DNA of 64,000 nt. Origin: Eledone cirrhosa. Its lineage: Eukaryota. Positions 11,854-63,822 of the stretch are shown here, piece by piece; the first letter of the stretch is position 1, and each line of letters begins with the position of its first letter. The translations under genes were made by a program, and so were the position numbers. The notes beneath the pieces were generated by a model. The model had not been told where the DNA came from. It saw only the letters and a list, made by a program, of their open reading frames with translations, and made no database searches. The DNA lies in the NCBI GenBank assembly GCA_964016885.1, contig OZ024745.1, positions 66,588,001 to 66,652,000 of the forward strand, read 5' to 3'.

Positions 11854-12264
11854 AAATAAAATAAATAAGTCAAATGTTTAAAATTTGGCTTCGTTTATTA
11901 CTGCTATATATATTTGGGTGACAGCCATCTTTGGCTGTGACCTCTTCAGGCAGTCCGAATTAGTGTGGTAGAGAAGAGTACACATGCTGTTGAGGTGTAT
12001 AACCTTCTCTACCACACTAATTCGGTGTACTAGAGGTGTATACTCGTCTCTACCACACTAATTTGGACTGCCTGAAGAGGTCACAGCCAAAGATGGCTGT
12101 CACCGAAATATATATAGCAGTAATAAACGAAGCCAAATTTTAAACGTTTGACTTATTTATTTTATTTTATTTTACAGTACTCCGGAGTAACCAAACCAAC
12201 CTGCGCACTTCGTCGAGTGCTCCAATCTGCATACTGAGGTGTTGGTATACAACCAACATATACT

Positions 12265-14023: not shown

Positions 14024-14180
14024 GAAATTTAAGTAAGTAAGCTAATTACTATAATTTTCTTATTTTACGTTTTTCATATAATTGTTCTGCATCTCCTTGC
14101 ATTGAACCACAAAGTTACTAAGACAAAACCTATATATTTGCTTGCATAGGTATACATCTGTATATATATGTTGGTAGATA

Positions 14181-14226
<46 letters not shown>

Positions 14227-14268
14227 AATGATTAATAACAGGTAGACATCATAAAAAGGTAATTTATT

Positions 14269-14391
14269 CCATGTGCTTACAAATGTTTCCACGGTGGTAA
14301 TACAGCCTAGTTATGCTATGTGCAAATTTACAACTATTTGCAGAACTCAAATATCAAATGCTGTGACCACTGTATCCTCAGAGCAGAATGG
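14269..14391 (-). ncRNA. Type I hammerhead ribozyme with long stem II insertion, in the PLE pLTR
   Basis: UGCU-CUGAGGA-U ACAGUGGU...~85 nt...ACCACCGU G-GAAA-CAUUUG-UA^AGCA. Stem I UGCU/AGCA is extended by CCAU/AUGG. HHRs in PLE pLTRs are established. Confidence 0.7.
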
Positions 14392-14906
14392 TTTAAATGT
14401 ACAATGTAAATACCCTTAAGTGGGGTTATTGGAGAAGATAGAGTAGAAAAGGAAGAGAGAAAAGTAAGGGAGAGGGAGAGAGAGAGAAAGATATGCAGGT
14501 GTTGGAGAAATAGGAGAGAGTGGTTTGTAGATATCTTAATCAAAATGTTATGGCAGGGGTTTTATTATACTGGTTACTTTTAGAGAGATGAATTGATAGT
14601 CAAGGTTGGAATTATTTATTGCCCGAGAGGGCAGGTTCATAGATGTGGAGAGGGAGGGAGGTAGGCCAAAGGCGAGAGAGAGAGAGAGTGGAATGGATGT
14701 AGAGATAGAGAGATAGAGAGGGGACAGACGAAGTCTATGTGGTGGGTGAACTTAGGGTTCGTAACTTAGGGTTCGGAACTTAGGGTTCGTAATCTGCGAA
14801 TTGCACTGAGTTACCATTTATAGTGATAAGCAGTGTATTGTCTTGTAGTGTGGGGGAAGAGAAGGTGGTTAGCTAGAAAGAGATGTTATAGTTACGGGTT
14901 CGAATG

Positions 14907-16947
14907 TTAAGTTATTTTATAGCGAGAGAATTTAGCTTTTAGTTTGTGGTTGCAGTATAATGATCGTTCGATTCTATCGTTAAGTAGTTTGTTTTTGGAT
15001 TTTAATATGTAAAAGAGTTCAAGGTTACACAACCTACAGTACTTCAATCCACTCCGGTATGCACTTGCGCTGGAAAGTATATCCCATTTTAAGGTGAACT
15101 GTTGGTTGCGTTCACGGAGTTTCCAGGTCTTGTTGGGGAGCGTGGTCACAAAACGGTGATCAGGATGTTTGATTGAGAATCGATGACGGTACCAGCGAGA
15201 TTTAAACGAGGTGGTGGTAGATCCGATATAATACCATTTCTGGTCGTTCGATTCAACCGTGCATTGGTAAACAATGTTGGACTTTAGGCATTCATTCTTC
15301 AATGGACATCTTTCAGGTAGATGGCAGTTACATTCTTTGTTGTGGGTAGCGGGTATACCATGGATAGGTTGTGATAGTAGTACAGGTGGGTTGTGTAATA
15401 CCCGTCTCCCATTTAGTGGTTGGGAGGCAGATATTACGGTCTGCCCATCTGTTATCAAAATATTTTGTTTTGTAGTGTTGTTTAATTGCTTTAAGTTAAG
15501 TTTTTTTATGTATGCTTCAAGGTTTGGTGCGGTGGAGTATGATAGTCTAATAGATTTAGAGTTCAGAATTTTACTGTATTTATGGGAACTAGGGAAATGT
15601 TTGTTGATTAACTTAAAGAATGAAAGAGATAGTTTTGTACTAATCGAGGCATTAAAAATAGGATTATACCAGATATACTTTCTACAACGTGATTTATTTG
15701 GTGGTGATTTACTATTATTAGTATGTCTGGTGGTACTGTGTGTGTGCGCTTATATTTTAGTCCCCCGGGTACGTATTCCTTGATTTCGTGTAGAGCTATG
15801 TGTGTTATGGAGCTTCCTATCAATGTATTCTATTGTATCCCGGTGGTCGGCATTCCTTAATGCATTATTATAGTATTCAGCGTGTTCACTAAAAATATCA
15901 GAGTTAGACGATAGGCGAGAGATTCTAAGAGAAATACTCCGGGGAACCGATTTGATCAGGGAGAGTGGGTGGTTTGAGTTAAAGTTGATATACGTAAGGT
16001 TCTCATTCATCTTGTGGAAGGGTCGTATCTGTCCGGTATTTAAATTAAGAGTTACGTCCAGAAAGTTTACTACTTTAAGATGGTATTCGTATGTTATTTT
16101 TAGACCCAGTTCACTAAAAGATTTTCTAATATTTTTCCATAGCCTTTCAAGATTTTGGTTATTCAAGTTATTAACTAATAAGAGTCCGTCATCTCTGTAT
16201 ATCCCCCCCCCCACTGTAGATTACTAAATTTATTATGTAGTATGTGCGCTATGTAAATTCCCACAAGATCCGTGACCTCCGCTGAGTCGTTGGAACCCAT
16301 GGTAATGTCGAAGTTTGTGGGTCTGTCCTTACGTTCCCAGTAGCAGTTATCAAACTTAATAATAGTTTTTCTAGCCTCGAGAATAATATTAATTTCGTCC
16401 TCCGTTAGGTCGGATTTGACTTTAGCAAACGATAGGGCCTTACGTAAAGTGCTTGGTGAGATTGAAGAGTAGTATTCGTCTATGTCAAATTGTATAAACT
16501 TAGATTTATTCTTATTCTTAACGTTATTAAACCAGCGAATTGCTTCGCTCGTGTTGCCCCATAATTTAATTTCAACTTTCTTTTTCACTTGACTTATTAC
16601 TCTGTCAAGTATATGTTTGCTAATTTTTCCTATGTCTGATTTAGAAGGGCATATAAGTCTAATCTTAGGGTTAGAGTCAAAATGTACCTGATGGTCCTTC
16701 AGGTTGAAGGTGGGGGTAGCGGGTATAATCGGCTCGGTTCTATCGTCTATCTTGAGATTCTTCACCACTTTGTATGCCTCGTTGTTAATATTTGCTAGCG
16801 TAGTTTCATTTGTTTTTCTATATTTTTTGTGTAGTTCGTTGCGTATGAAGTTATTGTACGTATCGATATCCATGGTATACACGTTAGAGGTCTTGTCAGC
16901 TTTCACAACAATACCATTGGTATTTTGCAGTCTTCGGAGTAGTGCTT
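14907..16947 (-). pseudogene. PLE RT-GIY-YIG polyprotein (5'-truncated; one frameshift, one premature stop)
   Basis: RT motifs FIQFDIDEYYSSI, FDITMGSNDSAEV, IYRDDGL and VNFLDVTLNL. Linker WYNPIFN...KHFPSSHKYSKI. CNCx5C, NIVY...YYIG (GIY-YIG), KSRWYRH and CRLC. Frameshift at the poly-C near 16203-16212; in-frame TAA at 15750-15752. Confidence 0.9.
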
Positions 16948-16950
16948 TTA

Positions 16951-17587
16951 GACTATCATACTCCACCGCACCAAACCTTGAAGCATACATAAAAAAAACT
17001 TAACTTAAAGCAATTAAACAACACTACAAAACAAAATATTTTGGTAACAGATGGGCAGAACGTAATATCTGCCTCCCAACCACTAAATGGGAGACGGGTA
17101 TTACACAACCCACCTGTACTGCTGTCACAACCATGGTATACCCGCTACCCACAACAAAGAATGTAACTGCCATCTACCTGAAAGATGTCCATTGAAGAAT
17201 GAATGCCTAAAGTCCAACATTGTTTACCAATGCACGGTTGAATCGAACAACCAGAAATGGTATTATATCGGATCTACCACCACCTCGTTTAAATCTCGCT
17301 GGTACCGTCATCGATTCTCAATCAAACATCCTGATCACCGTTTTGTGACCACGCTCGCCAACAAGACCTGGCAACTCCGTGAACGCAACCAACAGTTCAC
17401 CTTAAAATGGGATATACTTTCCAGCGAAAGTGCATACCGGAGTGGATTGAAGTACTGTAGGTTGTGTAACCTTGAACTCTTTTACATATTAAAATCCAAA
17501 AACAAACTACTTAACGATAGAATCGAACGATCATTATACTGCAACCACAAACTAAAAGCTAAATTCTCTCGCTATAAAATAACTTAA
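16951..17587 (+). pseudogene. Inverted second copy of the PLE linker + GIY-YIG endonuclease domain
   Basis: ORF 17087-17587 is almost identical to the C-terminus of the 14907-15458 product. The upstream part has indels. Confidence 0.88.
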
Positions 17588-18080
17588 CATTCGAACCCGT
17601 AACTATAACATCGCTTTCTAGCTAACCACCTTCTCTTCCCCCACACTACAAGACAATACACTGCTTATCACTATAAATGGTAACTCAGTTCAATTCGCAG
17701 ATTACTACTACGAACCCTAAGTTCACCCACCACATAGACTTCGTCTGTCCCCTCTCTATCTCTCTCTCTCTACATCCATTCCACTCTCTCTCTCTCTCGC
17801 CTTTGGCCTACCTCCCTCCCTCTCCACATCTATGAACCTGCCCTCTGAGGCAATAAATAATTCCGACCTTGACTATCAACGCATCTCTCTAAAAGTAACC
17901 AGTATAATAAAACCCCTACCATAACATTTTGATTAAGATATCTACAAACCACTCTCTTCTATTTCTCCAACCCCTGCATATCTTTCTCTCTCTCTCCCTC
18001 TCCCCTACTTTTCTCTCTTCCTTTTCTACTCTATCTTCTCCAATAACCCCACTTAAGGGTATTTACATTGTACATTTTAA

Positions 18081-18203
18081 CCATTCTGCTCTGAGGATAC
18101 AGTGGTCACAGCATTTGATATTTGAGTTCTGCAAATAGTTGTAAATTTGCACATAGCATAACTAGGCTGTATTACCACCGTGGAAACATTTGTATGCACA
18201 TGG
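18081..18203 (+). ncRNA. Hammerhead ribozyme in the inverted pLTR copy (stem I mismatch next to the cleavage site)
   Basis: TGCT-CTGAGGA (18091-18097)...GAAA (18183-18186)-CATTTG-TA-TGCA. An A>T change relative to the left copy breaks the first stem I pair. Confidence 0.6.
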
Positions 18204-18390
18204 AATAAATTACCTTTTTATGATGTCTACCTGTTAATATTCATTCTTTATATACACTCCAGAATACAGAAGGATCAGGAACTAAGTTTCTTCAACAATT
18301 CTTCCATAACTCGTAGAGTAACATCTCACCGTCCGTCAACCATATCCAGTGTAGTAATTAACCATTACTACATCTAGGATAATCCTATAC

Positions 18391-18424
<34 letters not shown>

Positions 18425-18886: not shown

Positions 18887-21800
18887 CTACAGGATGGTAT
18901 ACAGAGAAGGCCCATTTACACGAGCCATTCTCGCCACTATCACCCACCTTTCATAAAACTGGCTGTGGCCATGCACCTCTCTCTCCATTCTTATCCTTCT
19001 TCCGAAGTGATATCGGAAGAAGTAGACCAGACTATGGCCAGAGAGGAAGTTGCCTGACCTCAGACCTTTCAATCGTGTCCACCAAACAACCTCTTTCAAC
19101 ATTGCTATTACGCACAGAAAAACCACCTTTGCTTCCTTTGTGAAGAGGGGAGGCGGTTTGATTGTCACCACGGACTCGGCGGTTAATCGAATCGGCGCCA
19201 CCCGCGACAGCAGTCGTTTGGCGTAGCCCGACAGACCAGCCACGCCCGGATATTGCACCAATGCGTGCGCAACGGTTTCTTCGTGACGCACGCATCTAGG
19301 GCAAAACTTTTTCGAGGGATCCCTGCCCGGGCGCCCGTGTCTGTAGAGCCTCTCTCGAACGGGTAGAGCCCCCCGGTAGCACTGCCAGGCTAGTGACTTC
19401 TGGAAGTTGTCCATTGGTCCCAGGCCGAAAGTCCTACCGAACAGGCTGGCCAGTTCGTCCTCTTCCATGTCCAGCGATTCTCCAAGGGTGTCATCGCCCC
19501 TGCTAGCCACCAGCCCTCTATAGAATGATGAGGTGGATTCTCCACCGATGGCCTGGCCCGCTTGCCAGAGAGCCCTGAGCGCCTGAGCACACTCAGTGTG
19601 CCAGTCTCCCAGTTTTCCGGATCTTTGCTTGACCCAGGACTGCAGCTCGGTGAGCGAGACGAGTCTCGGAAAGGCTCGTTTCACGAACGGATCCCACACC
19701 GGTTGACTAGTGAGGAATACCTGTAGGTGCCGTAGCCTTAATGCGTGCCTACGCATCATCAACCATGGCATCCCCAGCCCTCCTTTCGAAGGTTGTTGGC
19801 AGCAGATGGATCTTCTCACCATAGGAGGGCGCTTCTTCCAAAGAAATTGGAAGAGTATGCGTTCCATGGTGGTGAGTGTTTCCTTAGGGCAAGGCACGAC
19901 AGTCAGGCGGTAGTAAGTGACGGACGCTATGTAAATGTTCGCCACCTCCGCCCGGCCTTTTAGGGACAGCTTACACTTGGCCCATTTCTGGGTTAGTGCA
20001 AACACCTTGTTCGTAACCTTGTCCCAGTTCTTTTCCACCTGGAGGTCCGGTCCAAACCAGACCCCAAGCAACTTTACCGGGCCCTCCGTCCAGTCTCCGA
20101 CAACACCATCGGGAGGCATCGGTCTGCCTCTCCACGTTCCGAGTTGCAGCCCGATGGATTTTTCCCGGTTCAGTTTCGCTCCTGACAACCTTTCGTAATC
20201 CTCCAGTAAGGTACCGATCGCCTCGATCTCCGAGTCGGTCGATACCATTACTGTTACGTCATCGGCGTAGGCCGACATCGCTTTGCTCAATCCTGGTTCC
20301 AGCGGGATACCCTGCAATAACTCCAACTTCCTCAGTAAAGGCTCGAGAGTCAATACGTACAGAAGGTAGGAGAGAGGGCACCCCTGTCGAATGGATCGTG
20401 TGATTTCGAACGGCTTCGAAAGGTAGCCGTTCACCTTGATCCTAGAACAGATGTGGTTGCTATGTAAGGCAGTGATCCAGCCTCGGAAAACAGGACCGAA
20501 CCCAGCCGCCGCTAGCACCGCATCCAGGTAACCATGGTCGACCCTATCCAAGTTGTTCAGGGCCCCACCGAAGCCGGGTTTGTTGCCAACCCTCTCTATG
20601 ATGTATCGCATGAGGTGGAGGTTATCGTGAATGGACCTGGATGGGATAGCACATGTCTGCGCATCTCCCACCAGGCTACCCACGACAAGCGCCAACCTCT
20701 TTGCTAACACCTTGGCCAAAATCTTTAACTCTGTGTTTGGCAGGGTTATTGGCCGAAAATTATTTATACTATCCCCCTTGTTCTCGTCCTTCCTCACCAG
20801 CGAGACTACACCCTTGGCTACAGAACAAGGAATTCTCCCGTTCTGCTGCCAATTGCAGTAGACCGCTTCGAGGAGTTCGGAGAAGACCGGCATTGCTAAA
20901 TAAAGTTCGTAGGGTATACCATCGAGACCTGGAGATTTGCGTCTGCTGCATTGGCTCAGCGCATCCCCGATCTCATCAGCCGAGATTGGTCCCTCGCAGG
21001 ACTCTGCCTCTTCGCTCGAGAGACGCGGCAGGTCGTCGAGGTATGGACCGAAATCCACGTCCCCGCCCGGACCCTCCCCTGCCCCGAATAATCGGGCAAA
21101 GTGCCTTTGAAAGGCCTCGCACATCTGCTTAGGCTCCCGGATCACCCGTCCATCCTCGTCTTGCAACGACCGGATGGTGGTTTGATTTCCACTCTTAGCT
21201 TCTGTCACGCGGGCCCAGCCAACGGCTTTGGCCCCCTCATTACCTAGAGCACGTATTTTACTTCGAATGACGCAGCCTTCGTGCTTTGCATCGAAAAACT
21301 GGTTCAAGGCCGTCCTCGATGCCAGTACTCTGGCCACATCTTCGCTCTTGATTGCCTCTTCTAATTTACCTGTTAATTCTTTCTCGTTTCTATTCCTATC
21401 GGCAGCTAACATCTTGCTATAACTTATTGATTTTGTTCTAATCTCTCTTTTGAGAGATGCCCACCATCGGTTGTTGACGATTGCACCCGTCAACCTCTCC
21501 TTAACTAATCTGCTAATCCGGTTTCTGTAAGTCTCTTTTGCCGGTAAAGACAAAATAAGTTGCCAGTAATCGGGACCCTGTTTATGTGTTTTCTCGAGAT
21601 TGACTACGCAGGTCACTAATTTGTGATCCGTATAGCCAACCGTGAGCATTTCTGGACAGCTTAATATGTCCCTATCCTTACTTCTAACTAAGAATCTATC
21701 TAAGTACGATCTAGATTGACCACTGTGGTTCGTCCAAGTCCAGGTAGGCACAGTTGGAAAATCTAGTCGATATCTATCGACCAAGTTAAAACGGTCGAGG

Positions 21801-22303
21801 TACCCCTTGAGGCTGTTACACCCCCCTCTATTAGGACATGCTCCTGCATAGTCCCAACGTGCATCTAGGATGTCATTCCAATCCCCCGCTAGAAGCAGGG
21901 AACGCGACGTTCCCAGAAAAGTCTCCAAACGCTGGAAGAAGTTGGGCCGTTCAGCTCCGAAATGGGAGTAGACGGCGACCAGTCTCAAGGCCGCACCTTC
22001 ATTACTGCCAACGTCTAGCACCAACAAACGACCCTCCGGGTCCGAGTGAACAACCTATACGGCAAGACCCAGGTGTTTTTGCAGCAGTACGACAACTCCA
22101 CCCCCACCTCCAGGTTGACAGAGAGATGCATGCACCACAAAGTCATCGAAGGTAGGGGCCAGCTGCAACACGACGCTGATCCGAGTCTCACAGATAACCA
22201 TTACATTTATACCACATGACCCGAGGTCATTTAGAAGCTTTGCTTGCTTCCAAGTTGAGCCCAGGCCACGTGCATTCAAACATCCTACTCTTAATACATC
22301 CAT
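18887..22303 (-). pseudogene. LINE ORF2 (AP endonuclease + reverse transcriptase), interrupted
   Basis: ORFs 22055-22303 and 18887-22027 share a frame and are split by one TAG. APE motifs: LNARGL, CET, AGDWN, SYLDRF, TDH. RT motifs: KSPGLDG, FRPITL, RQGCPLS, YADD. Motif A reads NLDRVDH, so the usual xxKAFD is missing. Confidence 0.92.
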
Positions 22304-22336
22304 GTGGGCGGCAAAGCCAAAGGAGAGTGTAGAGAC

Positions 22337-24038
22337 CTACCTTTCTGCTTCCCGGGGTTCGGGTTGCACGACTTCCATGGGGTCGGGGGTGTTGGGTGAA
22401 GGGATGTCTTGTGGTGGTGTGGGGTCGTCAGTGTGTGGTGGGGTTGGGGTGTTTGGAGTTGTGTTGGGGAGCGGAAGGGGAGGGGGAAAGCTTTTTAGTA
22501 GGACGCGGTTTATGGGTTTGACAGAGGGTGGTCCTACGTCCCCCTTAAAATCCTTTTTTAGTTTTTGGTAGAGGTTCATTGGGATCTTTATTAATTTTAG
22601 ATGTGGGTAGTTTTCTGAAGAAACAAAGTTTACACCTTCGGTTTGTACCGAAGGATTATTGTTTATGAGTTCATTTAATTTATTATTGTTTCTGTTGATG
22701 TAAGTATAGTGTAATGTCTTTTTTTCGGATGGTGTGAGTGTTTCGAAGAGGGGAGGGGCAGGTTTGGTTTTGTTTGTTGCTGGAGGGGTGTTTAGTGTTT
22801 TGTTGGATTGTGTTGACATTTGGGTGGGGGTTGTTTGGCCTTGTGTGTTTTGCACATGTTTTCTTTTTTTCCTTTTAATCTGTCTGAAGGACTCCGTTTC
22901 TTCCTCCGAATTCGTTGGGTTATCTTCAGTGTTGGAGGGAAGAGGTATGTTTGCTGGTAATGTTTCCGTGTTTGTTTTCTTTGTGGAGGAGATGGATGTC
23001 ACTATGTTAGAGTGTTGTGTGTTGTGGCTGCGGTGGTTGTGTTGTTTTATTGAGTGAGGGGTTGGGTGGGCCTGTATTTTGTTTTGGGGTAATGTGTTGT
23101 GACTGTTTGTGTTGTGGTGGTGGTGTAGTTTTACTGAGGGACGGGTTGGGTGGGACTGAGTTTTGTTGTTTGTTTATCTGTTGTGGTGGTGGTGGTGGAG
23201 CTGGTGTTGGTAGCAGGGTTTTCTTTTTGTTGAGTTGGGGACAAGCTGCCTTCAGGTGCCCTCTGCCTGCACAGATATGACAGGACGGCCTTCTCCCCTC
23301 CACGCTAATGTTTATATAACCGTGGCCCTCTAATAGGATTCTGTCGGGTATTTGGGCGATGCGTTCAGGCTTTATTTGCACTACAAGTTCTATACCTGTT
23401 CCACTGAACGCATTGCCTGTGGTTTTCCCAATGGAAATCACGTTGTCATTCGCTGGATCGATGAAGCCAGCTATGAGCCAGCAGTAGTCCACATCTGGCA
23501 TCATTGCATCCAGCCATATGCGTTGAGTTCTGTTACCCATATAAGATGGATAAAAGGTAAAAATTTTCGAACGAATCGGTGACAAAGCACATTTTTTTGC
23601 CGCCGATTCGTTCTTCATAATAATCGCTAGGCTTCCATACAGTCTGTCTTTTCTTATGAAAGTGGTTTCATTAAGTACTTCTGTAAGTACTGTTTTGATT
23701 TCTATTTGAGTTGGCTGTTCAGGTTTTTTAGAAATGTTGTTGATGGTGCGGAAAACGACCGTTCGACTTTCAATGTCTTTGGTGAGTTCTTGAGGCATTT
23801 TTACCGATAAAATACCATTTTCTCCTTCAGTTATATATTGTTTGGAGTCTGTAATTCTTTGTGCCACATCTGAAATATTTTCAGGTATATATGTCAAAGA
23901 TTTCTTTGTTGTTTGTGCAAATGAAATATTATTGGTGTTGACTTTGTCGTCTGCTTTGCTTTCTGTTATGATGTTGTTTTCAAATGTTATTTTTGTGTTT
24001 GTCGTGTCTTTGTTTGTGGTATTAATATTGTCATGCAA
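22337..24038 (-). pseudogene. LINE ORF1 (gag-like, zinc knuckle), frameshifted near 23005
   Basis: CHICAGRGHLKAAC (CX2CX4HX4C) followed by a Pro/Thr/Gln-rich tail that continues in another frame (22337-23002), directly upstream of ORF2. Confidence 0.8.
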
Positions 24039-24478
24039 TTTTTCAAATTTTTTTTTTTCGTTGTTGGAATCAATGTCCAGATTTGTGTTTTCGTCATTTT
24101 TCTACGCAGATTCGTCTGTTTTTATTTTATTTTTTCTTTCCTTCTCTATGACGTTAGTTGGGAAGAAAGGGGGGACTAAAGCATGCGAGCTTACAACTCT
24201 TACCGATGTCCCTCACCACTATTTTCGTTAGCTTCGTTTAACATTTCTGTCAGACGATTGAAATTTTCTATGCCACAAAATTTTTAAAAACAGGTTTTTC
24301 ACCCCTAGGAGGGGTAAAGATGAGCTGACCCACTGCCTGACAGTTCAGACGGGGGGGGGCAAGCTACACAATAGTATCAAAATTAAAATTGAACTTACAA
24401 AATTTCCGCAATAAATTTGAACAAAACTTCTGCGCGAAGTGAATTACATCTACGCTGTAGAACAGACGACAGCTGGAT

Positions 24479-50244: not shown

Positions 50245-50532
50245 TTAATAAATGCATATATACATATAAATAAATATATATATATATATTTATATATTCA
50301 TATATAATATATATACATGTTTATAAATACATATGTACATATATATAAATATATATGTTTAAATATAATATATATTTATATATATGTATATATATATATA
50401 TGTGTGTGTTTGTGTGTCTGTGTGTGTGTGTGTGTTGATAAATATTTATTCGAATATAATGTATAGATATGTAATAAAAGTAAAAGAATATTTGGTTCGC
50501 TTCAATTTAAATATGTAAATATATAAATAAAT

Positions 50533-50671
50533 ATAAGTTGAAAAAAATGAAAACGAAATTTCATTTCTCACTCTTAGTATGGCACTTACTTAAATGTAAG
50601 TATGTATGTATACGTACATACATATATGTATACAGACGTACAGTAGCATGCATATATATATATATATACAC

Positions 50672-50702
<31 letters not shown>

Positions 50703-51172
50703 CACATATGCATACAGGTACACATACATATATGCACGCATCAGTTTAGCCGACGTTTATTATAACGCCTGCTTTGTTCGTTTGTTTATCAACAAATCAA
50801 ACAGCCTGAATTTATGCCATACGGTGTTAAGGCAACCACGTCACCTTTTTGTTCAACACTGACACAGGAACGATGTACTAGTTTCAAGCTTGTTAGCTAT
50901 CATCAGCACCGTTTACCCATCTGCCAGATAGTTGAACGTTCGAAAGTATATACTTTCCTTATGAAAATTAACGGCTGAGCAGCCTAATTTGCATATTGAG
51001 TGAGTTAAATCGGTCAGGCATACCGAAAACGATAAGTTGAAAAAAATGAAAACGAAATTTCATTTCTCACTCTTAGTATGGCACTTACTTAAATGTAAGT
51101 ATGTATGTATACGTACATACATATATGTATACAGACGTACAGTAGCATGCATATATATATATATATATACAC

Positions 51173-51203
<31 letters not shown>

Positions 51204-51673
51204 CACATATGCATACAGGTACACATACATATATGCACGCATCAGTTTAGCCGACGTTTATTATAACGCCTGCTTTGTTCGTTTGTTTATCAACAAATCA
51301 AACAGCCTGAATTTATGCCATACGGTGTTAAGGCAACCACGTCACCTTTTTGTTCAACACTGACACAGGAACGATGTACTAGTTTCAAGCTTGTTAGCTA
51401 TCATCAGCACCGTTTACCCATCTGCCAGATAGTTGAACGTTCGAAAGTATATACTTTCCTTATGAAAATTAACGGCTGAGCAGCCTAATTTGCATATTGA
51501 GTGAGTTAAATCGGTCAGGCATACCGAAAACGATAAGTTGAAAAAAATGAAAACGAAATTTCATTTCTCACTCTTAGTATGGCACTTACTTAAATGTAAG
51601 TATGTATGTATACGTACATACATATATGTATACAGACGTACAGTAGCATGCATATATATATATATATATACAC

Positions 51674-51704
<31 letters not shown>

Positions 51705-52172
51705 CACATATGCATACAGGTACACATACATATATGCACGCATCAGTTTAGCCGACGTTTATTATAACGCCTGCTTTGTTCGTTTGTTTATCAACAAATC
51801 AAACAGCCTGAATTTATGCCATACGGTGTTAAGGCAACCACGTCACCTTTTTGTTCAACACTGACACAGGAACGATGTACTAGTTTCAAGCTTGTTAGCT
51901 ATCATCAGCACCGTTTACCCATCTGCCAGATAGTTGAACGTTCGAAAGTATATACTTTCCTTATGAAAATTAACGGCTGAGCAGCCTAATTTGCATATTG
52001 AGTGAGTTAAATCGGTCAGGCATACCGAAAACGATAAGTTGAAAAAAATGAAAACGAAATTTCATTTCTCACTCTTAGTATGGCACTTACTTAAATGTAA
52101 GTATGTATGTATACGTACATACATATATGTATACAGACGTACAGTAGCATGCATATATATATATATATACAC

Positions 52173-52203
<31 letters not shown>

Positions 52204-52671
52204 CACATATGCATACAGGTACACATACATATATGCACGCATCAGTTTAGCCGACGTTTATTATAACGCCTGCTTTGTTCGTTTGTTTATCAACAAATCA
52301 AACAGCCTGAATTTATGCCATACGGTGTTAAGGCAACCACGTCACCTTTTTGTTCAACACTGACACAGGAACGATGTACTAGTTTCAAGCTTGTTAGCTA
52401 TCATCAGCACCGTTTACCCATCTGCCAGATAGTTGAACGTTCGAAAGTATATACTTTCCTTATGAAAATTAACGGCTGAGCAGCCTAATTTGCATATTGA
52501 GTGAGTTAAATCGGTCAGGCATACCGAAAACGATAAGTTGAAAAAAATGAAAACGAAATTTCATTTCTCACTCTTAGTATGGCACTTACTTAAATGTAAG
52601 TATGTATGTATACGTACATACATATATGTATACAGACGTACAGTAGCATGCATATATATATATATATACAC

Positions 52672-52702
<31 letters not shown>

Positions 52703-53170
52703 CACATATGCATACAGGTACACATACATATATGCACGCATCAGTTTAGCCGACGTTTATTATAACGCCTGCTTTGTTCGTTTGTTTATCAACAAATCAA
52801 ACAGCCTGAATTTATGCCATACGGTGTTAAGGCAACCACGTCACCTTTTTGTTCAACACTGACACAGGAACGATGTACTAGTTTCAAGCTTGTTAGCTAT
52901 CATCAGCACCGTTTACCCATCTGCCAGATAGTTGAACGTTCGAAAGTATATACTTTCCTTATGAAAATTAACGGCTGAGCAGCCTAATTTGCATATTGAG
53001 TGAGTTAAATCGGTCAGGCATACCGAAAACGATAAGTTGAAAAAAATGAAAACGAAATTTCATTTCTCACTCTTAGTATGGCACTTACTTAAATGTAAGT
53101 ATGTATGTATACGTACATACATATATGTATACAAACGTACAGTAGCATGCATATATATATATATATACAC

Positions 53171-53201
<31 letters not shown>

Positions 53202-53669
53202 CACATATGCATACAGGTACACATACATATATGCACGCATCAGTTTAGCCGACGTTTATTATAACGCCTGCTTTGTTCGTTTGTTTATCAACAAATCAAA
53301 CAGCCTGAATTTATGCCATACGGTGTTAAGGCAACCACGTCACCTTTTTGTTCAACACTGACACAGGAACGATGTACTAGTTTCAAGCTTGTTAGCTATC
53401 ATCAGCACCGTTTACCCATCTGCCAGATAGTTGAACGTTCGAAAGTATATACTTTCCTTATGAAAATTAACGGCTGAGCAGCCTAATTTGCATATTGAGT
53501 GAGTTAAATCGGTCAGGCATACCGAAAACGATAAGTTGAAAAAAATGAAAACGAAATTTCATTTCTCACTCTTAGTATGGCACTTACTTAAATGTAAGTA
53601 TGTATGTATACGTACATACATATATGTATACAGACGTACAGTAGCATGCATATATATATATATATACAC

Positions 53670-53700
<31 letters not shown>

Positions 53701-54170
53701 CACATATGCATACAGGTACACATACATATATGCACGCATCAGTTTAGCCGACGTTTATTATAACGCCTGCTTTGTTCGTTTGTTTATCAACAAATCAAAC
53801 AGCCTGAATTTATGCCATACGGTGTTAAGGCAACCACGTCACCTTTTTGTTCAACACTGACACAGGAACGATGTACTAGTTTCAAGCTTGTTAGCTATCA
53901 TCAGCACCGTTTACCCATCTGCCAGATAGTTGAACGTTCGAAAGTATATACTTTCCTTATGAAAATTAACGGCTGAGCAGCCTAATTTGCATATTGAGTG
54001 AGTTAAATCGGTCAGGCATACCGAAAACGATAAGTTGAAAAAAATGAAAACGAAATTTCATTTCTCACTCTTAGTATGGCACTTACTTAAATGTAAGTAT
54101 GTATGTATACGTACATACATATATGTATACAGACGTACAGTAGCATGCATATATATATATATATATACAC

Positions 54171-54211
<41 letters not shown>

Positions 54212-54671
54212 CATACAGGTACACATACATATATGCACGCATCAGTTTAGCCGACGTTTATTATAACGCCTGCTTTGTTCGTTTGTTTATCAACAAATCA
54301 AACAGCCTGAATTTATGCCATACGGTGTTAAGGCAACCACGTCACCTTTTTGTTCAACACTGACACAGGAACGATGTACTAGTTTCAAGCTTGTTAGCTA
54401 TCATCAGCACCGTTTACCCATCTGCCAGATAGTTGAACGTTCGAAAGTATATACTTTCCTTATGAAAATTAACGGCTGAGCAGCCTAATTTGCATATTGA
54501 GTGAGTTAAATCGGTCAGGCATACCGAAAACGATAAGTTGAAAAAAATGAAAACGAAATTTCATTTCTCACTCTTAGTATGGCACTTACTTAAATGTAAG
54601 TATGTATGTATACGTACATACATATATGTATACAGACGTACAGTAGCATGCATATATATATATATATACAC

Positions 54672-54702
<31 letters not shown>

Positions 54703-55170
54703 CACATATGCATACAGGTACACATACATATATGCACGCATCAGTTTAGCCGACGTTTATTATAACGCCTGCTTTGTTCGTTTGTTTATCAACAAATCAA
54801 ACAGCCTGAATTTATGCCATACGGTGTTAAGGCAACCACGTCACCTTTTTGTTCAACACTGACACAGGAACGATGTACTAGTTTCAAGCTTGTTAGCTAT
54901 CATCAGCACCGTTTACCCATCTGCCAGATAGTTGAACGTTCGAAAGTATATACTTTCCTTATGAAAATTAACGGCTGAGCAGCCTAATTTGCATATTGAG
55001 TGAGTTAAATCGGTCAGGCATACCGAAAACGATAAGTTGAAAAAAATGAAAACGAAATTTCATTTCTCACTCTTAGTATGGCACTTACTTAAATGTAAGT
55101 ATGTATGTATACGTACATACATATATGTATACAGACGTACAGTAGCATGCATATATATATATATATACAC

Positions 55171-55201
<31 letters not shown>

Positions 55202-55671
55202 CACACATATGCATACAGGTACACATACATATATGCACGCATCAGTTTAGCCGACGTTTATTATAACACCTGCTTTGTTCGTTTGTTTATCAACAAATCA
55301 AACAGCCTGAATTTATGCCATACGGTGTTAAGGCAACCACGTCACCTTTTTGTTCAACACTGACACAGGAACGATGTACTAGTTTCAAGCTTGTTAGCTA
55401 TCATCAGCACCGTTTACCCATCTGCCAGATAGTTGAACGTTCGAAAGTATATACTTTCCTTATGAAAATTAACGGCTGAGCAGCCTAATTTGCATATTGA
55501 GTGAGTTAAATCGGTCAGGCATACCGAAAACGATAAGTTGAAAAAAATGAAAACGAAATTTCATTTCTCACTCTTAGTATGGCACTTACTTAAATGTAAG
55601 TATGTATGTATACGTACATACATATATGTATACAGACGTACAGTAGCATGCATATATATATATATATACAC

Positions 55672-55702
<31 letters not shown>

Positions 55703-56170
55703 CACATATGCATACAGGTACACATACATATATGCACGCATCAGTTTAGCCGACGTTTATTATAACGCCTGCTTTGTTCGTTTGTTTATCAACAAATCAA
55801 ACAGCCTGAATTTATGCCATACGGTGTTAAGGCAACCACGTCACCTTTTTGTTCAACACTGACACAGGAACGATGTACTAGTTTCAAGCTTGTTAGCTAT
55901 CATCAGCACCGTTTACCCATCTGCCAGATAGTTGAACGTTCGAAAGTATATACTTTCCTTATGAAAATTAACGGCTGAGCAGCCTAATTTGCATATTGAG
56001 TGAGTTAAATCGGTCAGGCATACCGAAAACGATAAGTTGAAAAAAATGAAAACGAAATTTCATTTCTCACTCTTAGTATGGCACTTACTTAAATGTAAGT
56101 ATGTATGTATACGTACATACATATATGTATACAGACGTACAGTAGCATGCATATATATATATATATACAC

Positions 56171-56201
<31 letters not shown>

Positions 56202-56204
56202 CAC

Positions 56205-56235
<31 letters not shown>

Positions 56236-56684
56236 CACATATGCATACAGGTACACATACATATATGCACGCATCAGTTTAGCCGACGTTTATTATAACG
56301 CCTGCTTTGTTCGTTTGTTTATCAACAAATCAAACAGCCTGAATTTATGCCATACGGTGTTAAGGCAACCACGTCACCTTTTTATTCAACACTGACACAG
56401 GAACGATGTACTAGTTTCAAGCTTGTTAGCTATCATCAGCACCGTTTACCCATCTGCCAGATAGTTGAACGTTCGAAAGTATATACTTTCCTTATGAAAA
56501 TTAACGGCTGAGCAGCCTAATTTGCATATTGAGTGAGTTAAATCGGTCAGGCATACCGAAAACGATAAGTTGAAAAAAATGAAAACGAAATTTCATTTCT
56601 CACTCTTAGTATGGCACTTACTTAAATGTAAGTATGTATGTATACGTACATACATATATGTATACAGACGTACAGTAGCATGTG

Positions 56685-56720
<36 letters not shown>

Positions 56721-56803
56721 TGTGTATATATATATATATATGCATGCTACTGTACGTCTGTATACATATATGTATGTACGTATACATACATACTTACATT
56801 TAA
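50533..56803 (-). repeat. Tandem array of ~500-bp hammerhead-containing units (12 full + 1 partial), retrozyme-like, ending in a fold-back
   Basis: The unit marker TTGAAAAAAATGAAAACG recurs at 50538, 51037, 51538, 52039, 52538, 53037, 53536, 54035, 54538, 55037, 55538, 56037 and 56570. Units are nearly identical apart from the length of an internal TA/CA microsatellite and a few substitutions. Each full unit has one HHR motif on the minus strand. Confidence 0.95.
50869..50913 (-). ncRNA. Minimal type I hammerhead ribozyme (first of 12 identical copies in the array)
   Basis: Minus strand reads AACGGUG-CUGAUGA-U AGCU AACA AGCU U-GAAA-CUAG-UA^CAUCGUU: 7-bp stem I with one G.U pair, intact core, 4-bp stem II, palindromic stem III, GUA cleavage triplet. 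Other 45-nt copies start at 51370, 51871, 52370, 52869, 53368, 53867, 54370, 54869, 55370, 55869 and 56402. Confidence 0.9.
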
Positions 56804-57039
56804 ATAAATATATATATATATATATGTTTGTGTGTGTCTACGTGTGTGTGTGTAAATGTGCGCGTGTGTGTGAATGTGTGTTTGTTTGTATGTCTATATA
56901 CTATCTTCTTCCCTGTCCGTAGTAGTAGGAGTAGCAGCAGCAACACCAGTAGCAGTAATAAAGCTCGATATTTTGCAGCAAACATATTTATGTATTTCTC
57001 CGTTAATCTGTTTGTCCGGATTTTCCATCCTCACACAAA

Positions 57040-57354: not shown

Positions 57355-57540
57355 AGGAAAAGAGACTTCTACAGGACTAACACTGTTTCATTCCGGAGAA
57401 ATCATCAGGAAGTCCTGATTATTTCTCCGGAATGAAACACCTCTAGTCCTGTAGCAGCCTTTCTACATTAAATATTTATACTCTGCTTTGTATTGAGTAC
57501 CTTACTTACTGTGGTTACCCCCGATTCAACCCGAGATAAA
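57355..57540. mobile_element. Short fold-back HHR element, family A copy 3
   Basis: Minus strand 57364-57414: GACTTC-CTGATGA-TTTCTCCGGAAT-GAAA-CAG TGTTAGTC CTG-TA^GAAGTC. A decayed mirror copy follows. Flanked by (TA)n. Confidence 0.78.
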
Positions 57541-57624: not shown

Positions 57625-57730
57625 ATAGGAAAATGTATGACCCTGACGGCAGAGCTCAAGCCGTTTCGACGGCTATTTCTGGACGTCGAAACGGCTTGAG
57701 CTCTAGCGTCGTGGTCATACATTTTCCTAT
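57625..57730. repeat. Fold-back (~45-bp arms) next to (TA)n
   Basis: ATAGGAAAATGTATGACC...AGAGCTCAAGCCGTTTCGACG / CGTCGAAACGGCTTGAGCTCT...GGTCATACATTTTCCTAT. Confidence 0.88.
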
Positions 57731-63764: not shown

Positions 63765-63822
63765 ATACTATGATCATTTCAATGACCGGGTTCAGTATAA
63801 ATCCGGTGACATCATCAGGTAT
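63765..63822 (-). ncRNA. Minimal type I hammerhead ribozyme
   Basis: AUAC-CUGAUGA-UGUCACCGG...CCGGUCAUU-GAAA-UGAUCA-UA^GUAU, with a palindromic stem III loop (UGAUCA). Confidence 0.75.

Follow-up and report, generated by a model that had tools for sequence, protein, structure and literature searches.

A tandem array of units that each carry a hammerhead ribozyme motif lies at positions 50533..56803, on the minus strand, of the 64,000-nucleotide (nt) stretch of Eledone cirrhosa DNA analysed here (contig OZ024745.1, positions 66,588,001 to 66,652,000; hereafter the window). The array is probably a young non-autonomous Penelope-like element (PLE) of the kind known as non-LTR retrozymes (LTR, long terminal repeat). 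Its insertion ends suggest that the retrozyme is copied by a PLE of the same genome, probably from an RNA circle. An exact 39-nt motif taken from the unit occurs 10,198 times in the 3.0 Gb genome and 0 times in the reversed control, which argues that the motif did not arise by chance. A preliminary description of the window had put the array forward as a candidate circular RNA locus; it is no special locus of that kind but one young insertion among the thousands of a genome-wide non-LTR retrozyme family. The same description had proposed a retrozyme of recent origin that was made by a PLE reverse transcriptase (RT), and this proposal is supported by the genome-wide family, by fixed ends with a tail and inversions, by fusions with an intact PLE, by selection on the ribozyme core and by a variant private to the array.

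The insertion consists of a main tandem arm and a short inverted arm. Tandem Repeats Finder reports a repeat at 50533-56745 with a period of 499, 12.4 copies and 98%. The main arm (50533..56682, minus strand) starts at about unit position 226, counted like all "q" positions in nt from the predicted ribozyme cut, and stops at position 343, the long end B. It contains 11 full cut-to-cut monomers of 499-533 nt and two partial ones. The inverted 5' arm (56683..56803, plus strand) covers unit positions ~170-285 and terminates at the short end A, with a 3-nt overlap at the inversion point. It had been stated that the whole of 50533..56803 is tandem and made of 12 units with intact hammerheads; the 12 motifs are there, but ~56683-56803 is the inverted arm and the full monomers number 11. 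The 58 nt between the fixed ends A (q285) and B (q343) form a "tail" that is found in every unit and is terminal at 50533..50590 (minus strand). A long hairpin domain with (AT)n, located in the last unit at 50591..50740 (minus strand), is the source of most of the variation in unit length, and end A lies at its 3' foot. Outside of this microsatellite the 11 full monomers vary at just 3 positions, in agreement with the earlier statement that the units differ almost only there. The absence of a credible open reading frame (ORF) also held: ORFs of at least 40 amino acids (aa) in the unit span 47-72 aa and derive mostly from the microsatellite, and a protein-coding unit was rejected on these grounds. 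A candidate 12-bp target-site duplication flanks the element, with a left copy at 56801..56812 that overlaps the element end by microhomology and a right copy at 50524..50535 (both minus strand). Non-LTR retrozymes that have such a duplication have one of more than 4 bp. This 12-mer is AT-rich, occurs 4 further times in the window and is weak evidence alone; the other loci sit in (TA)n, where a target-site duplication is unreadable. Six public runs, from 4 studies with 4 organism codes, contain the DNA, and no RNA run is listed among them, which bears neither way on expression. No contig of the four runs examined (X1 with 21,430 contigs, X4 with 0, X5 with 2 and X6 with 10) spans the array, and the unit number of the assembled array could be off by a few.

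The minus strand carries 12 identical type I hammerheads, one per unit and all 12 with the full core. The first of these (45 nt) is at 56402..56446, with a predicted cut at 56409/56408 and a core start at 56439, and the last is at 50869..50913, with a predicted cut at 50876/50875 and a core start at 50906. The cores between them start at 55906, 55407, 54906, 54407, 53904, 53405, 52906, 52407, 51908 and 51407. All 12 cut junctions are precise, and the cut spacings in transcript order (533, 499, 501, 499, 503, 499, 499, 499, 499, 501 and 501) reproduce in reverse the list of the preliminary description, which had also placed a cut at 50876/50875. The motif has a stem I of 7 bp, CUGAUGA, a stem II of 4 bp on a U.U pair, GAAA, a palindromic stem III and a GUA cut triplet. 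It thus contains C3 U4 G5 A6 N7 G8 A9, G12 A13 A14, the pair A15.1-U16.1, H17 and three helices with helix I open. The motif had been called "minimal"; by the helix sizes that separate the minimal from the canonical metazoan type I layout in PMC4209133, the predicted fold is canonical. Recognition by the Rfam hammerhead models, to which the earlier description had looked, was poor, with no hammerhead match to the array at the gathering score. A permissive run gave 112 rows, mostly microRNA models matched through the microsatellite, and among hammerheads only HH9 at 18.5 bits (E 0.27; cut-off 52). The motif is nevertheless likely to be an active ribozyme, judging from its sequence, because the axolotl hammerhead HHR_Amex2 also has a U.U pair at the base of stem II and cleaves, better as a dimer (PMC7229834; this and most other sources cited below are drawn on in part).

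Conservation of the core was examined in 28 loci chosen by their A end and hence independently of the ribozyme. The 11 catalytic bases are changed in 1 of 308 cells, compared to 597 of 7108 (8.4%) outside the motif, in a count by cell that treats related copies as independent. Related copies elsewhere therefore keep the core, as had been anticipated. Position N7 is C in 15 loci and T in 13, one loop II base is also variable, and the G.U pair of stem I has become A-U in 6 of the 28. In public run X1 too, N7, loop II and stem I are where the common variants near the motif lie, among the 40 rows listed out of 44. These patterns support purifying selection on the core, and such selection speaks for a role of cutting in vivo, in contrast to what was found in vitro for a single autonomous PLE. 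For a dimer, the stem III duplex is predicted at -4.8 kcal/mol, which like this selection bears only indirectly on self-cleavage.

How the units are inserted can be read from their ends across the genome. Twenty-eight loci were mapped, comprising the window, the 7 best matches and the first 20 motif clusters of contig 1. A further 40 were chosen by their A-end junction, of which 39 entered the terminus counts (L147 was omitted) and 36 were mapped in full. Intact arms stop at q285 (A, short) or at ~q343 (B, long), nearly always in (TA)n, and their 5' ends are variable. Exact junctions number 1,498 for the A end followed by (TA) and 363 for the B end of the main variant, with 0 in the controls. 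Inverted head-to-head pairs occur at 18 of the 28 loci, and 17 of these 18 pairs join one A and one B end when read by eye, where two B arms are interrupted or clipped and one locus is unclear. In the 39 loci picked by an A end, the terminus on the opposite strand is B in 24 and A in 0. The insertions therefore have two fixed 3' ends with a tail between them, variable 5' truncation and an adjacent inverted copy. PLEs are described as having a one-sided tail of 30-40 bp and inverted 5' copies, with (TA)n as the target of Hydra PLEs (PMC8557442), and the PLE tail has been explained as what lies between two internal start sites of the RT, from which both strands are extended (PMC11167929). The fixed ends, the tail and the inversions, as in these two studies, indicate that the insertion mechanism is of the PLE type. 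Based on the junctions, the insertion step is almost certainly the work of a PLE and very likely of one from the Hydra clade. Diverged subfamilies are present as well (L055:3169-3565; L119, L124 and L132), with 80-87% identity, ~440-nt units, another long end and the same core, so the family has several ages.

A mechanism that accounts for these features can be put forward. Tandem units would be transcribed on the minus strand, and two hammerheads would pair via the palindromic stem III and release ~500-nt monomers, a step that we consider quite likely. The monomers may then be ligated into circles, which is plausible with rather less confidence. An RT-GIY-YIG protein would nick a (TA)n or AT-rich target on both strands, and cDNA would be primed at two fixed internal sites on the RNA, 285 and 343 nt past the cut, one per strand. 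The RT would cross the ligated cut site repeatedly, for ~12.2 rounds in this array, the other strand would yield the arm of ~120 nt, and the two cDNAs would be united head to head.

The nature of the template is suggested by the arms themselves. Of 39 A arms, 20 pass the cut site (18 exactly and 2 with a changed base), 19 stop earlier and 0 stop there, and cut linear monomers were rejected as the template for this reason. The variant carried by the window array has 12 copies in the 3 Gb genome, every one in this array and in all 12 of its units. Sequences differ by 0.3% within arms and by 2.8% from one locus to another, and a locus usually has the same variants in its two arms. The closest haplotype seen, L026, is located on the same contig 15 Mb away (~51.69 Mb) and is one substitution off in the main arm. 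The run-through arms together with a locus-private variant in all 12 units favour a circular template.

It is also conceivable that a PLE inserts from an uncut multimeric transcript of an existing array, in which case no circle is formed and the ribozyme acts late or otherwise. This too predicts arms that cross the cut site; cleavage was dispensable in vitro and, in the part of PMC11167929 available, no reads end at the cut; and two loci, L021 and L022, carry one common haplotype. We regard it as unlikely, however, as no source array with the window's variant is present in this assembly (an unassembled haplotype is possible), a multimer cannot itself create a new variant common to all units, and purifying selection on the catalytic bases is left unexplained. 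Still less probable is a short PLE-type insertion of 1-2 units that was later expanded in place into a satellite by unequal crossover or slippage. Such an expansion is favoured in the discussion of bioRxiv 10.64898/2026.07.22.740005 and accounts for the private variant in all 12 units, but many very young loci dispersed in the genome carry multi-unit arrays, the two arms of a single insertion can both be multi-unit with shared variants (L022, L061 and L073), and the units here are separated by only 3 substitutions. An error of assembly, or an ordinary satellite that contains the motif by chance, would fit the near-identical units, the lack of public-run sequence across the stretch and the lack of an Rfam match at threshold, but is scarcely credible given the precise family-wide ends, the candidate duplication at both ends, the unit-specific substitutions, the 10,198 motif copies, the core conservation and the covariation. 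Copying of a single RNA round and round requires the fewest steps and would also explain selection on cutting; judging from the sequences we lean towards the circle.

Two PLE families of this genome were examined in connection with the retrozyme. PLE-A is represented in the window by a broken Hydra-clade element at 14151-18396 that has (TA)n at both ends; its main arm is read on the minus strand and its inverted arm on the plus strand. Elsewhere in the genome it has many intact 784-aa frames, its protein carries DKT, CxCX5C and RWK, and the stem II of the family hammerhead is ~90 nt (L083). PLE-B has an 821-aa ORF, with intact frames of 818-823 aa in the genome and, among the matches listed, at least 57 that are 100% identical over 160 aa. 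It carries DKT, CxCX5C and RWT, has a hammerhead of its own and two (TA)n ends that lie ~92 nt apart, and is 42% identical to PLE-A. PLE-B resembles the Hydra clade in its motifs and in a by-eye comparison, made in place of a tree, with published Hydra proteins: a C-terminal GIY-YIG, DKT, the CxCX5C linker, the hammerhead and the (TA)n target are all present. Pfam gave no RT or GIY-YIG match for the intact PLE proteins, and a protein atlas assigned them to unnamed HTH_animal/GIY-YIG clusters at 0.96-0.98. Both families were rejected as the sequence parent of the unit, as no similarity was found for PLE-A or, in 23 loci, for PLE-B.

Direct contact between the retrozyme and PLE-B is seen at two loci, L071 and L074, where the unit is fused to PLE-B without a TA run. 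L074 spans from the retrozyme long end to the PLE-B short end with no retrozyme remainder beyond it, and L071 spans from the PLE-B long end to the retrozyme short end, so that both fusions keep one short and one long outer end. The simplest reading is that they arose when the template was switched in the course of a single insertion. PLE-B, the intact Hydra family with the 821-aa frame, is, with modest confidence, the best helper candidate, and it may not be the only helper. At L023:5225-5520 a retrozyme arm is joined head to head with an arm of a third hammerhead family. A hammerhead related to this third family is found at L082:99-1740 beside a 369-aa Hydra-like frame. At L055, one of 38 PLE-A loci, a diverged retrozyme arm lies head to head with PLE-A, and the joint is in a TA run and is ambiguous.

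Several observations weigh against the explanation given here. The pair G10.1-C11.1 that closes stem II is absent, with U.U in 28 of 28 loci. The minimum-energy fold of the monomer is inactive (-9.5 vs -7.4 kcal/mol). The fairer figure for core conservation, since the copies are related, is by position, with 0 of 11 vs 77 of 244 variable (p=0.037). The terminus patterns overlook some ends, for example at L024, L058, L061 and L067, where a single end is seen. Among the 64 mapped loci, only 2 are fusions (2 of 28, and 0 of the 36 picked by an A end), and both could be deletions between neighbouring (TA)n insertions. The unit has no sequence similarity to either of the PLE families examined, and no promoter was identified in it by comparison with the upstream regions of host U1 genes. 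Opposite arms differ by 1.3%, which exceeds the difference between units of one arm and is due in part to unrelated copies nearby. Work on the one reconstituted PLE found that ribozyme mutants inserted no less and that the main template was uncut RNA (PMC11167929), and only 1 of 9 Xenopus retrozyme dimers was cleaved in vitro while 8 of 9 failed (bioRxiv 10.64898/2026.07.22.740005).

The family shares many features with known retrozymes. Its units, like those of the metazoan non-LTR retrozymes of PMC7229834, are non-coding, arranged in tandem and low in GC, with a single type I hammerhead in each; they are dispersed and number in the thousands, and the monomer is highly self-paired. The family differs in its unit of ~460-540 nt with an internal (AT)n hairpin, compared to 150-450 bp in that study, where circles were demonstrated; those of the present family are predicted. 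PLEs are named merely as candidate helpers in PMC7229834, the available part of which contains no analysis of tails, inversions or fusions. Animal retrozymes are thus an already described family (PMC7229834; bioRxiv 10.64898/2026.07.22.740005). The 2026 preprint argued that retrozymes are non-autonomous PLEs, from co-distribution in 35 genomes, with no molluscs in the portion available, and from sequence similarity to the PLE pseudo-LTRs (pLTRs). The vertebrate retrozymes described there also co-occur with PLEs, and the present unit lies within their range of 51-972 bp. The link to PLEs is drawn here from insertion ends and fusions, in contrast to pLTR similarity and co-distribution in the preprint. 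The proposal itself is not new; no tracing of it at the insertion ends was found in the literature consulted, and the value of the present family lies in mechanistic testability.

Comparison with autonomous elements is also informative. Hydra-clade PLEs have (TA)n targets, hammerheads, tandem and inverted insertions and a tail at one end (PMC8557442), as does this family, but their tail is 30-40 bp, and the array has a tail of 58 nt and no protein. Non-autonomous head-to-tail elements are mentioned in the available part of that study only for the Chlamys clade (MRC1), and its supplement includes Hydra-1_Obim from Octopus bimaculoides. The green anole Poseidon PLE (PMC11167929) likewise uses two fixed internal RT starts downstream of the cut, extends both strands and inserts at an AT-rich target. 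Poseidon, however, is an autonomous element for which cleavage is dispensable. The two strands are reported not to differ in their start site, and the pairing of short and long arms and insertions of mixed RNAs do not appear in the part of the report available. No cephalopod retrozyme was found in the open-access literature, where the supplements of PMC7229834 and the preprint may list further species, and neither was a study that links a retrozyme with one specific intact PLE through insertion ends or fusions. The main text of the 2026 Octopus vulgaris repeat annotation (PMC13282606), as far as available, has 0 mentions of hammerhead or ribozyme. The family is a large repeat class of its host that annotation would probably call simple repeat or unknown.

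A more far-reaching and tentative reading is that the retrozyme is a currently active viroid-like RNA circle that has no sequence kinship with its helper, is recognised by its structure and is copied by rolling-circle target-primed reverse transcription into two-headed insertions. Priming would always use the short site on one strand and the long site on the other, and different RNAs may be carried by the two heads (retrozyme, PLE-B or a third family). If true, this would be direct genomic evidence of animal retrozyme movement, possibly in the first cephalopod retrozyme, and would bear on why Penelope tails are one-sided. The spread of retrozymes and the role of the hammerhead in PLEs are called open in the accessible parts of bioRxiv 10.64898/2026.07.22.740005 and the PLE papers. 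The E. cirrhosa genome supplies both halves of an assay, namely an RNA of ~500 nt for which two start sites are predicted and a candidate helper protein that is intact and young, and the circle, the cut monomer and the uncut multimer are thus directly comparable.

The whole monomer is strongly self-paired (z -10.7; z -4.9 with the microsatellite excluded). Covariation on both sides is seen in 10 of 93 pairs (0 of 500 shuffles) and exceeds slid controls, among copies that are related. Each unit has at q381-388 what we take to be an octamer-like word, which is retained in 34 of 35 copies and lies inside the least variable part of the unit. The octamer is present in only 1 of 13 distinct upstream regions of host U1 genes, and nothing else is common to U1 and the unit. 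A promoter of the small nuclear RNA type, known from newt satellite 2 (cited in PMC2220036), was therefore rejected: a comparison with the DNA upstream of 20 host U1 loci, 13 of them distinct, found no shared element. Upstream of the host U1 genes (L151-L170), two short motifs recur at ~-60 and ~-260, and the octamer is mostly absent. End A falls within a short palindromic hairpin at q278-295, the 3' half of which is similar to the splice donor consensus. Introns near PLE ends are known, which touches on this splice-donor-like hairpin.

Other repeats are present in the window. Hammerhead-like motifs of other families occur at 57370-57455, at 12072 (plus strand) and at 63818 (minus strand), and one of them is a head-to-head inverted pair. 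The occurrence of several more hammerhead families at the loci indicates that the genome is rich in hammerhead-bearing PLE derivatives. A long perfect hairpin at 57630-57725, in a repeat that recurs near other loci, is probably where another family that targets (TA)n has its inversion point. An L1/Tx1-like long interspersed element at 18887-24101 (minus strand) has a 1055-aa frame with endonuclease, RT and zf-RVT, and two frames upstream of it.

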